This document shows positions 47,424-50,301 of a DNA stretch of 64,000 nt, in pieces. The position numbers and the translations under genes were made by a program. The notes under the pieces were generated by a model. It was not told the origin of the DNA. It was given only the letters and a program-made list of their open reading frames with translations, and did not search any database. Origin of the DNA: a virus; the IMG/VR virus record IMGVR_UViG_3300036770_004732, positions 32,001-96,000 of that record, one strand, 5' to 3'. Position 1 is the first letter of the stretch. Each line of letters opens with the position of its first letter.

Positions 47424-50301
47424 TCACCCGATGGTTGGTGCTGTCAATGCAACAGGAGTGTTACTAGCAGCAGCAAGATCAAGTGGGAAGTTGTGAGCAT
47501 TCCTTGTGTTTTAACCTTTGTCGCCAAAGGGAGCGGACTATATCATCACTCATAAGAGTGTCGGACGCTAGTGGCGTATTACGGATGAAGCGTCATCCAC
47601 CGCCTAGTCTCTGAACCTTCCTTACACGCTTGCAAGGCTTGGCTGCTGATTGTCTACAAGAGAGTTCCAGCAATTCATCCGATTTAACGAGCGCCATGCG
47701 TTCACAAAACGCTCGTGCATGACTTCCATTCCAAGTCCAGCACGGTTGAGTACATCAGCCCAGGTATTGATTACCTTGCCCTGACTATCAACAATACTTT
47801 GATTAAAGTTGAAGCCATTCAAATTGAACGCCATAGTAGATACACCAAGAGCGGTAAACCAAATACCCACGACGGGCCAAGCAGCAAGGAAGAAATGCAG
47901 ACTACGAGAATTGTTAAACGAAGCATATTGGAAGATGAGACGACCAAAGTACCCGTGTGCGGCAACAATGTTGTAGGTTTCTTCTTCTTGTCCGAACTTG
48001 TATCCATAGTTTTGTGATTCATTTTCAGTAGTCTCACGAACCAGTGAAGAAGTAACCAGAGAACCGTGCATAGCACTGAACAGTGAACCACCGAACACAC
48101 CGGCCACTCCCAGCATGTGGAAGGGGTGCATCAGAATGTTGTGTTCTGCTTGGAAAACCAACCTATTAAGCAGAACGAGGAACCTATGTTTCCATAGGGA
48201 TTGGACTATATCATCAATCTATTTTATTAGATTGTCGGGCGCTTAAACCTGTTATTAAGAGGGCTAAACCTCTCAGGTAGTCTCTGAACCTTTCTCAGAT
48301 GTATCTGAGACTTGGCTGCTGATTGCCTTGTCGTATTGCTCTTTAAGAAAGAGATTAAACTGTTCTTCTGTATTATTACCATAACCATAAAGGTCGTGGA
48401 ATAGTTTATGAACTTCTTTGTGAATAAGAACGCCGTTTGTAATATCATATCTTCTTTGTGGATATGCATTCCAACTATCTAAATGATGAGTAACAAGGTT
48501 AGATTTTTTACCAGTAACAACACAAGTTCTATTAAACCTCTGTTTTACTGCCTCTCTCCAAATATAATAATCTGTTGAGGGATTGTTAAAATCTCTATTT
48601 GGAGTTCCTTTATAAGCAGGATGGTTTTTACCAAACTTACCTTTAAGAGAACCTTTACGACCTTGTGCTTTTAGAGATAGAAGTTTTCTGGTTTCATCAC
48701 CAACATCCTTCCCTTTTTGAGTTTTGGAGATAGTGATTTTCCTACAATAAGGACAACCAGTTTTCTTTGCGTTTTTATAAGAAGCAACACTTGTATAGAA
48801 ATATTCACTACAAGTATTACAAAAGAACCAGACTTTACTTTTAATATCAGTATAACCGTCCATACAAACTACTTCGTGGTTTCTATTTTCAGCAATACTT
48901 TTTAAATCATCAATAGTAAGTCTTTTAGACATTTAACTTTATGTATCTATTAATATTTATAATAGCATAAAGTTAAAAGTTAGTCAATACGATTTAGGTT
49001 TCCAGCAGTTCACCCGATTTATACTACACATTGGTTTAGTTTATGTAGTTGAATGTACCAGAGATACCCAGAGGCATTCCGTCACTAAAACTTCCTTGAC
49101 CGAAAGGATAAACAAGGAATACGGCAGATGCGGCAGCAACAGGAGCACTGTAAGCAACGCAGATCCAAGGACGCATACCAAGACGGTAGGAAAGTTCCCA
49201 CTCACGACCCATATAGCAGAAGATGCCGATGAGGAAGTGGAAGACAACCAACTGGTAAGGACCACCGTTATAAAGCCACTCATCAAGTGAAGCAGCTTCC
49301 CAGATGGGATAGAAGTGCAATCCAATGGCGTTGCTTGAAGGAACTACAGCACCAGAAATGATGTTGTTTCCGTACATGAGAGAACCGGCAACTGGTTCAC
49401 GAATCCCGTCGCCTACACCTAACAAACAACCATATCATTAGACTTAGGTTGTTTCTGTTGACGAATCAGATTTGCTCGTTTTGCGTTTTCTACTCTTCCA
49501 CCATTTTCTACCCACTCTTTCCAAGTTTGTAGATGAGAAATAGATTCATTTATTCTTTCTGCCCGTCTTACTCCCATATAAGGAAGTATTTTTTGTAGAA
49601 TGAATAAAACCTTTTCTTTTTCTCCGATGTGAAGTGTATAAACTTGTTTACCTTTTACAGTTTTTCTTGATGGTGAGAAATACGACTTATCTAAAAGTTT
49701 ACTCAACCTTTGGATAATATCTTCATCTACCATAGAAACTTTGATAAAAGGTGCTGGCGGTGTATTAGAAACTTCATAACGGTCTTTGGAACGATTATCT
49801 ATTCCAAAGTATCCTTCACCTTCTAATAAACCAGCAATCCAAGCAATATCAGTTTCTGTTAAGTTTAACATTTTAGTTTTGCTTCTACTGTATTATTTAT
49901 ACAGCATTAGCAAGAAAAAGTCAACAGTAGATGTGTGGACTATATCTTCACCCTTCATAGAAGGGGCTGGGCACTTAAACCTGTTATTAAGAGGACTGAA
50001 CCTCTCAGGTAGTCTCTGAACCTTCCCCAAGTGTACTTGAGGCTTGGCTGCTGATTGCCTTTCGGTTTCCAGCATTTCACCCAGTTTCGTCAATACTCTT
50101 ACGAGTAAGGGACACCGATTAGTTAATGTCTACGGGAGGTGCAGCAATGAAGGCGACGATGAAACATACGGTTGCGGCAAGCAGCGTAGGAATCATCAGA
50201 GTACCGAACCAACCAACATAAAGGCGGTTGTTCGTTGAAGTAACCCACTCGCAGAATTGATCCCAAGTGGAATTAGAGCGTTGTGCAATTGAAGCAGTCA
50301 T
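47424..50301 (-). CDS. psbA: Photosystem II D1 protein in 4 exons (50301-50126, 49411-49043, 48162-47709, 47501-47424); 358 aa after splicing
   Basis: The exons join in frame (176+369+454+78=1077 nt) to give ...PPVDI/DGIREP...TFNYM/LVFQAEH...[15 protein letters not shown].... REW corresponds to Glu130 (D1:2-like). Confidence 0.97.
47502..47708 (-). mobile_element. Group I intron 3 of psbA (207 nt, no ORF)
   Basis: The exon ends in U and the intron in G. P1 is GAGCGU/GCGCUC; the core elements are AATTGCTGGAA, AATCAGCAG, TTCAGAGACTA and GATATAGTCC. Confidence 0.93.
48163..49042 (-). mobile_element. Group I intron 2 of psbA (880 nt) with an HNH ORF
   Basis: P1 is ACUACAU/GUGUAGU and P10 is AACCAAU/GUUGGUU; P, Q, R, S core elements and terminal G present. 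Confidence 0.93.
48273..48932 (-). CDS. Intron-encoded HNH homing endonuclease (zinc ribbon + NUMOD3-like + HNH)
   Basis: CNTC/CPYC; ETRKLLSL...G.N.PAYKG; WR..V..R....CV.TG...THHL...NG.L....H..FH. Late promoter at 48954-48961. Confidence 0.85.
   Translation of the reverse strand: MSKRLTIDDLKSIAENRNHEVVCMDGYTDIKSKVWFFCNTCSEYFYTSVASYKNAKKTGCPYCRKITISKTQKGKDVGDETRKLLSLKAQGRKGSLKGKFGKNHPAYKGTPNRDFNNPSTDYYIWREAVKQRFNRTCVVTGKKSNLVTHHLDSWNAYPQRRYDITNGVLIHKEVHKLFHDLYGYGNNTEEQFNLFLKEQYDKAISSQVSDTSEKGSETT
49412..50125 (-). mobile_element. Group I intron 1 of psbA (714 nt) with a LAGLIDADG ORF
   Basis: P1 is GACAU/GUGUC; core elements AAATGCTGGAAA, AATCAGCAG, TTCAGAGACTA and AAGATATAGTCC; terminal G. 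Confidence 0.93.
49419..49871 (-). CDS. Intron-encoded single-motif LAGLIDADG homing endonuclease
   Basis: [14 protein letters not shown] motif, V.M.D.DII and L..ILPY; late promoter TATAAATA at 49894-49901. Confidence 0.85.

Follow-up and report, generated by a model that had tools for sequence, protein, structure and literature searches.

Three group I introns in the psbA gene of an uncultured cyanophage and their counterparts in other phages and in a green-algal chloroplast

The sequence analysed here, referred to as the window, is a stretch of 64,000 nucleotides (nt) corresponding to positions 32,001 to 96,000 of the IMG/VR virus record IMGVR_UViG_3300036770_004732. It contains the psbA gene of an uncultured T4-like cyanophage, which encodes the photosystem II protein D1 and is divided into four exons by three group I introns. 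Two of the introns contain open reading frames (ORFs) that belong to different endonuclease families, and introns of all three types recur at the same sites in the psbA genes of other uncultured phages; the second intron also has a counterpart, with a homologous ORF, in the chloroplast psbA of a green alga. Very likely, three mobile group I introns of the IA type invaded a functional phage psbA independently of one another.

Structure of the psbA Gene and Its D1 Product

The gene lies on the minus strand of the window, with its ATG at position 50301 and its stop codon ending at position 47424. A tblastn search with the intron-less S-BM1 D1 returned four collinear psbA pieces, whose boundaries were then set by motif positions. 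The exons listed below rest on this search, on the motifs and on the joined translation.

50126..50301, minus strand: psbA exon 1, 176 nt, coding nt 1-176
49412..50125, minus strand: intron 1, 714 nt, group I, IA-like with P7.1/P7.2; core approximately 50125..49919
49419..49871, minus strand: intron 1 ORF, single-motif LAGLIDADG homing endonuclease, 150 amino acids (aa); Pfam LAGLIDADG_3
49043..49411, minus strand: psbA exon 2, 369 nt, coding nt 177-545
48163..49042, minus strand: intron 2, 880 nt, group I; ORF in L5, without P2
48273..48932, minus strand: intron 2 ORF, putative HNH-type endonuclease, 219 aa; N-terminal treble-clef zinc finger and C-terminal nuclease
47709..48162, minus strand: psbA exon 3, 454 nt, coding nt 546-999
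47502..47708, minus strand: intron 3, 207 nt, group I, ORF-less
47424..47501, minus strand: psbA exon 4, 78 nt, coding nt 1000-1077 including the stop codon

Joined together, the exons form a reading frame of 1077 nt that is free of internal stops and frameshifts and translates into a D1 of 358 aa; exons 2 and 3 share 96-97% amino-acid identity with S-BM1 D1. Intron 1 is inserted past the second base of an Ile codon (VDI/DG, coding nt 176), intron 2 past the second base of a Met codon (FNYM/LVFQAEH, coding nt 545), and intron 3 between an Arg and an Asn codon (MHER/NAHNF, coding nt 999). The reading frame and the splice signals were perfect at six of the six exon-intron boundaries.

Translation of the unspliced gene would run into a stop after two codons in introns 1 and 2 and after 28 codons in intron 3. 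Since every unspliced form contains an in-frame stop, D1 should be obtainable only from fully spliced psbA mRNA, from which all three introns have been removed. These results agree with the initial annotation of this DNA, which had given the same coordinates and strand, placed the introns past coding nt 176, 545 and 999 and deduced a D1 of 358 aa; its view that D1 production would depend on triple splicing likewise finds support in the distribution of the in-frame stops.

Group I Identity of the Introns

All three introns exceeded the gathering score (50 bits) of the Rfam group I intron model RF00028, with 65.4 bits for intron 1 (E 2.3e-15), 52.9 bits for the 3' part of intron 2 (E 1.3e-11), and 80.1 bits for intron 3 (E 8.8e-20). 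The ORF in L5 interrupts the model and thereby accounts for the low score of intron 2, in which P1, P3, P4-P6, P7, P8, P9, and a P10 of 7 base pairs (bp) were all readable.

The pairings expected at the splice sites were read from the sequence. Intron 1 forms a P1 of 5 bp (GACAU/GUGUC) and a P10 of 3 bp (CGA/UCG), intron 2 a P1 of 7 bp ((A)CUACAU/GUGUAG(U)) with its P10 being GUUGGUU/AACCAAU, and intron 3 a P1 of 8 bp (ACGAGCGU/GCGCUCGU) together with a P10 of 4 bp. In each case, the U that closes the 5' exon forms a U.G pair with the guide and the terminal base of the intron is G, while the splice boundaries are fixed independently of these RNA pairings by the D1 reading frame. The group I nature that had been claimed for the three introns is thus confirmed by the covariance model as well as by the U.G pair of P1, P10 and the terminal G.

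An insert consisting of P7.1 and P7.2 is located between P7 and P3' in all three introns, which assigns them to subgroup IA. An alignment of nine introns at coding nt 999, including intron 3, revealed compensatory double changes in 17 of the 46 consensus pairs (located in P5, P6, P7.1, P8, and P9), which shows that the fold is under selection. Covariation was examined for this site-999 family only, as the relatives of introns 1 and 2 were too alike.

Endonuclease ORFs of Introns 1 and 2

Located 3' of the P9 hairpin, the ORF of intron 1 extends to within 7 nt of the 3' splice site. Its product matched Pfam LAGLIDADG_3 with 23.7 bits against a cut-off of 22.5, and LAGLIDADG_1 under the cut-off of that family. 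The motif G-x-x-E-G-E-G is invariant, with E17, G18, E19, and G20 unchanged in 21 relatives; a single LAGLIDADG motif implies a homodimer. Relatives with 77-97% identity were present at 28 IMG/VR loci, and a PDB search gave weak matches only (I-AniI, E 1e-3).

The ORF of intron 2 lies in L5 and extends with its 3' end into the ribozyme core (P5'-P7). The product matched two PHROG families annotated as HNH endonuclease (E 3.7e-11 and 1.6e-4) and, weakly, the Pfam DUF4379 zinc finger. By eye, an HH...N...H pattern could be seen at residues 149-178, and it is kept in the Oedogonium protein described below. Ten IMG/VR loci carried relatives with 61-95% identity, and nothing useful emerged from a PDB search. 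The claim that the endonucleases of introns 1 and 2 are mutually unrelated was borne out, one being a single-motif LAGLIDADG protein and the other of HNH type with a zinc finger.

Among the cultured phages of INPHARED, neither ORF had a close relative, the best matches being below 37% identity and located in Bacillus, Staphylococcus, and Arthrobacter phages; for the HNH ORF, no relative above 33% identity was found in cultured phages. In prokaryote genomes (one per species), the HNH ORF had no close relative and its only match was a partial one of 47% in Virgibacillus; a cyanobacterial intermediate was therefore not found.

Correspondence with Introns of Green-Algal Chloroplast psbA

The N-terminus of the window D1 is one codon shorter than in the standard numbering, so that R333 corresponds to R334 and H189 to H190. 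With this offset, which we take to be one codon throughout, insertion sites 176, 545, and 999 become 179, 548, and 1002, the values also given in the initial annotation.

The chloroplast psbA of Oedogonium cardiacum contains ten introns, none of them at site 1002 (PMC2442088, Table 4). According to the same table, Oc.psbA.1 is an IA1 intron at site 179 with a single-motif LAGLIDADG ORF of 184 codons in L9, and Oc.psbA.6 is an IA1 intron at site 548 with an HNH ORF of 202 codons in L5. Intron 1 resembles Oc.psbA.1 in its site, ORF family, and ORF position, with an ORF of 150 compared with 184 codons. Intron 2 resembles Oc.psbA.6 in the same three respects and, in addition, the ORFs are homologous: over 175 aligned aa, the intron 2 product and a putative HNH homing endonuclease of O. 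cardiacum (202 aa; cluster P0018) share 55% identity (E 3e-68). In a protein search with this ORF, named relatives were found only in the green algae Scotinosphaera, Oedocladium, and Staurocarteria, with 47-50% identity.

The comparison with algal psbA introns that the initial annotation had recommended thus produced matches at sites 179 and 548, under the numbering offset assumed above. It sets a phage genome against a plastid, and the likeness is known from sites, ORFs, and loops, not from ribozyme nucleotides. Judged by these features, the site-548 intron is a concrete link between phage and plastid, and the site-179 intron is probably another.

Comparison with S-PM2 and S-SRM01

In phage S-PM2, the endonuclease F-CphI cuts intron-less psbA and the intron shields its own genome, an arrangement termed collaborative homing (Millard et al. 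2004 and Zeng et al. 2009, as told in PMC6083498 and PMC5931967). The S-PM2 psbA intron is also reported to splice efficiently and in a light-dependent manner.

Intron 3 of the window shares the insertion site of the S-PM2 intron, as had been claimed; both follow the MHER motif at coding nt 999, and both are ORF-less (207 and 212 nt, respectively). As in S-PM2, a gene of the F-CphI type lies directly downstream of psbA:

46928..47356, minus strand: free-standing homing endonuclease gene of the F-CphI type (Endo VII motif), 142 aa; Pfam Endonuclease_7, E 7.9e-26

Its product is 82% identical to S-PM2 F-CphI over all 142 aa. The locus thus contains both elements of a collaborative homing pair: an intron without an ORF at the target site of F-CphI, and a gene of the F-CphI type downstream of psbA. 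The S-PM2 gene differs in carrying one intron only, and the two introns differ in the guide region, P6, and P7.1/P7.2, with 3' cores that are 68% identical; intron 3 is of the S-SRM01 type and not of the S-PM2 type.

S-SRM01 (MW015081; PMC8557907) is an isolate, a freshwater Synechococcus phage and a large (240 kb) cyanomyovirus; the window phage is likewise a large cyanomyovirus. Within the phage collection, its psbA exons are the closest to those of the window (87% nt identity). Like the window gene, S-SRM01 psbA contains three group I introns, one with an endonuclease ORF, and the 3' core of its site-999 intron is identical to that of intron 3. The two phages also share the PhotoRC-II leader (RF01717, 64.2 bits in S-SRM01) and a downstream F-CphI-like gene. 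They differ in the remaining two introns, which in S-SRM01 are located at coding nt 273 and 747 rather than 176 and 545. In the S-SRM01 paper (PMC8557907), as in the deposited annotation, the gene appears as two partial psbA genes separated by only one recognised intron. In our analysis, S-SRM01 psbA (L001 2821-5226) has in fact three introns (273, 747, and 999), and the deposited annotation omits exons 3 and 4.

Multi-Intron psbA Genes in Viral Metagenomes

To survey related alleles, we collected at least 62 distinct psbA regions from IMG/VR, 29 of them full length, by one pattern scan and two endonuclease-based scans. As the sample was drawn through intron and endonuclease queries, it documents presence and not frequency, and the pattern scan was not specific for psbA. 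Among the 29 full-length genes, one intron was found in nine, two in nine, three in six, and four in three, and one partial psbA carried at least five. The well-supported intron sites were coding nt 176, 227, 314, 496, 545, 567, 642, 747, 887, 999, and 1005, to which S-SRM01 adds 273. At least 31 of the fetched loci contained the site-176 intron and about 10 the site-545 HNH intron. Multi-intron alleles (for example L106, L118, L135, L181, L188, and L146) carry the same intron types at the same sites as the window gene (176, 545, and 999), combined in differing ways with introns at about ten other sites.

The initial annotation had considered three introns in a phage photosynthesis gene to be unusual. 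This expectation did not hold, as three are found in S-SRM01 and between two and at least five on many contigs of IMG/VR. The annotation had also remarked that its novelty would drop if triple-intron alleles were common in freshwater cyanophages, and such a drop follows from the alleles found here. The literature searched on phage psbA introns mentions one in S-PM2 and its relatives, one bearing an endonuclease in S-CBWM1, and one noted for S-SRM01, and our literature search found no paper describing a phage psbA with several introns. Multi-intron phage psbA genes are common in viral metagenomes yet hardly described in print.

Relationship of Introns 1 and 2

Introns 1 and 2 had been reported to share a near-identical stretch, which was interpreted as the retargeting of one ribozyme lineage within the gene. 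The stretch is real; it differs at 4 of 55 positions and corresponds to the P7.1/P7.2 module. The two introns also fall into the same broad clade of a tree of 3' cores, in agreement with a common sub-lineage. A recent event within this psbA, in which one ribozyme moved to another site, changed its guide, and gained a different endonuclease, would account for this likeness, and site switching does seem to happen, given that introns at sites 545 and 642 (L146, L160, L166, and L181) intermix in the 3'-core tree with 85-91% identity. This intermixing suggests recent site switching or gene conversion in the intron pool. In addition, the site-999 intron of another contig (L079:1355-1560) is a mosaic whose ends follow the window type while P6 and P7.1 follow that of S-PM2, which indicates an exchange of modules between introns.

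Nevertheless, we consider recent retargeting within this gene to be unlikely. Between introns 1 and 2, identity in the 3' core amounts to 79%, whereas it reaches 99% between intron 1 and the site-176 introns of six IMG/VR loci and 96% between intron 2 and the L106 intron at site 545. Intron 2 is also as close to the site-999 intron of S-PM2 (82%) as it is to intron 1, and the shared stretch is equally near intron 1 (4 mismatches in 55 nt) in introns that split the major-head-protein gene of unrelated phages. Moreover, sites 179 and 548 are occupied by introns with the same ORF types in the same loops in chloroplast psbA, placing the insertions before this phage. Because each intron has close counterparts at its own site, and these sites are known in algal psbA, retargeting, if any, would be old and specific neither to this phage nor to this gene. 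The part of the earlier proposal that stands is the common sub-lineage.

Introns 1 and 2 are thus best regarded as members of one widespread intron lineage, each of which would have reached its site long before this phage. The same appears to apply to the three introns as a group: they seem not to be derived from each other in this phage, each being a local copy of a type that is widespread at that site in uncultured cyanophages.

The P7.1/P7.2 module was also observed in introns of the major-head-protein gene (phrog_1328) on about two dozen viral contigs (L128-L162; for example L131:1899-2804:-, L137, and L147), and the intron lineage is accordingly not confined to psbA.

Evidence on Splicing and Alternative Explanations

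In order to look for spliced transcripts, as the initial annotation had advised, we placed Logan contigs of public RNA runs on the window; host psbA and psbA of other phages dominate the depth. In run X3, a single RNA contig connects position 47501 with position 47709, which corresponds exactly to the removal of intron 3, with 21 nt on the shorter side. That run also contains a contig that is identical to the window and extends, unspliced, across intron 3. Loose contig ends at position 48162 continue into divergent sequence resembling exon 2, which corresponds to other psbA alleles. The junction check therefore yielded a single weak joint for intron 3 and no exact joint for introns 1 and 2.

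Several observations weigh against a functional psbA colonised independently by three mobile introns. The intron 3 joint could equally stem from an intron-less relative, and exact joints for introns 1 and 2 were not found among the Logan RNA contigs compared with the window, where stretches without cover are uninformative; splicing of the three introns is deduced from the sequence. The endonuclease activities of the ORFs are likewise predictions drawn from family membership, and a Pfam search of the intron 2 ORF gave no HNH match. For the LAGLIDADG ORF, no named algal relative appeared in a single-sequence search, in a profile search (which was swamped by double-motif bacterial proteins), or in the ESM Atlas (viral clusters only), so the algal link of intron 1 is carried by its site, ORF family, and ORF position. 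Finally, the exact combination of introns at 176 (LAGLIDADG), 545 (HNH), and 999 was not found on a second contig in the fetched IMG/VR sample, in which the alleles differ from the window in this regard.

Two further explanations would account for some of these points. If at least one of the introns no longer spliced, psbA could be a decaying gene, that is, a pseudogene kept as a landing pad for selfish elements. The position of intron 2 barely above the Rfam threshold, the absence of P2, and the overlap of its core with the ORF could be signs of such decay, as could the indirect nature of the case for splicing. On the other hand, the exons are intact, with high identity to S-BM1 D1 and no frameshift, near-identical introns persist in many phages, and the score of intron 2 reflects the interrupting ORF, its helices and P10 being readable. 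We regard decay as very improbable. The gene could also be an assembly chimera, with intron-bearing fragments of different phages joined into one psbA. The source record (111 kb) is uncultured and estimated to be 48% complete, psbA exons are so conserved that they can mislead assemblers, and the lack of a second contig with the same trio would fit an artificial joining. However, every exon-intron junction recurs on independent contigs of other samples, where the introns are found in pairs (176 and 545 on L194, 545 and 999 on L193, and 176 and 999 on L163 and L178), and the psbA of the isolate S-SRM01 is equally split. A 230-nt contig of run X19, the kind of which is unrecorded, is identical to the window and spans both ends of intron 3, and a chimera would also have to reproduce the perfect frame and splice signals at all six boundaries. 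A chimera is thus likewise very improbable, and independent colonisation of a functional psbA is the reading that we retain.

Proposed Mechanism

Under independent colonisation, we infer splicing, endonuclease activity, and homing at the window psbA as follows. The gene would be transcribed with its three introns, and each ribozyme would fold and remove itself by guanosine-initiated splicing. The internal guide would form P1 with the last bases of the upstream exon, placing the U.G pair at the cut, and P10 with the beginning of the exon that follows; exon ligation would then restore the complete D1. The introns themselves would be selfish elements, with the LAGLIDADG and HNH-type endonucleases cutting intron-less psbA during co-infection and in this way driving homing. 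Intron 3, being ORF-less, may be teamed with the adjacent free-standing F-CphI homologue, like the pair responsible for collaborative homing in S-PM2.

Flanking Features and Other Observations

Two features flank the coding region of psbA:

50341..50435, minus strand: PhotoRC-II RNA motif in the psbA 5' leader, Rfam RF01717, 40.5 bits (gathering score 39), E 2.6e-4
47388..47413, minus strand: hairpin resembling an intrinsic terminator (GGAACUC uucg GAGUUCC and a subsequent U run), read from the sequence

The hairpin is strong, starts approximately 10 bases past the psbA stop codon, and is located, together with its U run, between this stop and the F-CphI homologue. Given its position, simple co-transcription of the endonuclease gene with psbA is improbable. 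In S-PM2, the antisense RNA CfrI is annotated across the psbA/F-CphI junction.

Outside psbA, the window (22000-46900 and 46104-46769) displayed only short stretches of approximately 79% identity to the cultured cyanophages S-SKS1, S-SRM01, and S-SCSM2R, one of them being an aldolase-like gene (46104-46769, minus strand) that adjoins the F-CphI homologue. The virus is thus a large cyanomyovirus that is both distinct and uncultured.

Elsewhere in this phage genome, beyond the window (G000:C1:106708-106902, minus strand; L005:1450-1720, minus strand), RF00028 matched a fourth group I intron with 64.6 bits. This intron seems to interrupt a tRNA-like gene in the anticodon loop, in a tRNA gene cluster (Ile, Asn, Thr, and Gly), and an HNH endonuclease ORF of 156 aa (L005:1393..923) follows it directly.

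Significance

Annotation of psbA and metagenomic surveys of this gene will miscount or truncate multi-intron genes, as has happened with S-SRM01. The supply of D1 during infection would hinge on several ribozymes, making multi-intron psbA a test bed for light-dependent splicing. The occurrence of an intron at the same site, with a 55%-identical endonuclease in the same loop position, in a phage and in an algal plastid offers a handle on the crossing of introns between cyanobacterial viruses and plastids. More tentatively, and as a possibility that we do not favour over its opposite, cyanophage and green-algal chloroplast psbA may share one pool of mobile group I introns, in which whole units of ribozyme, endonuclease, and target site would have moved between phage and plastid and site switching would be ongoing. 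If this were true, freshwater cyanophages would be a large undescribed reservoir, and perhaps a vector, for chloroplast psbA introns such as the ten of Oedogonium.

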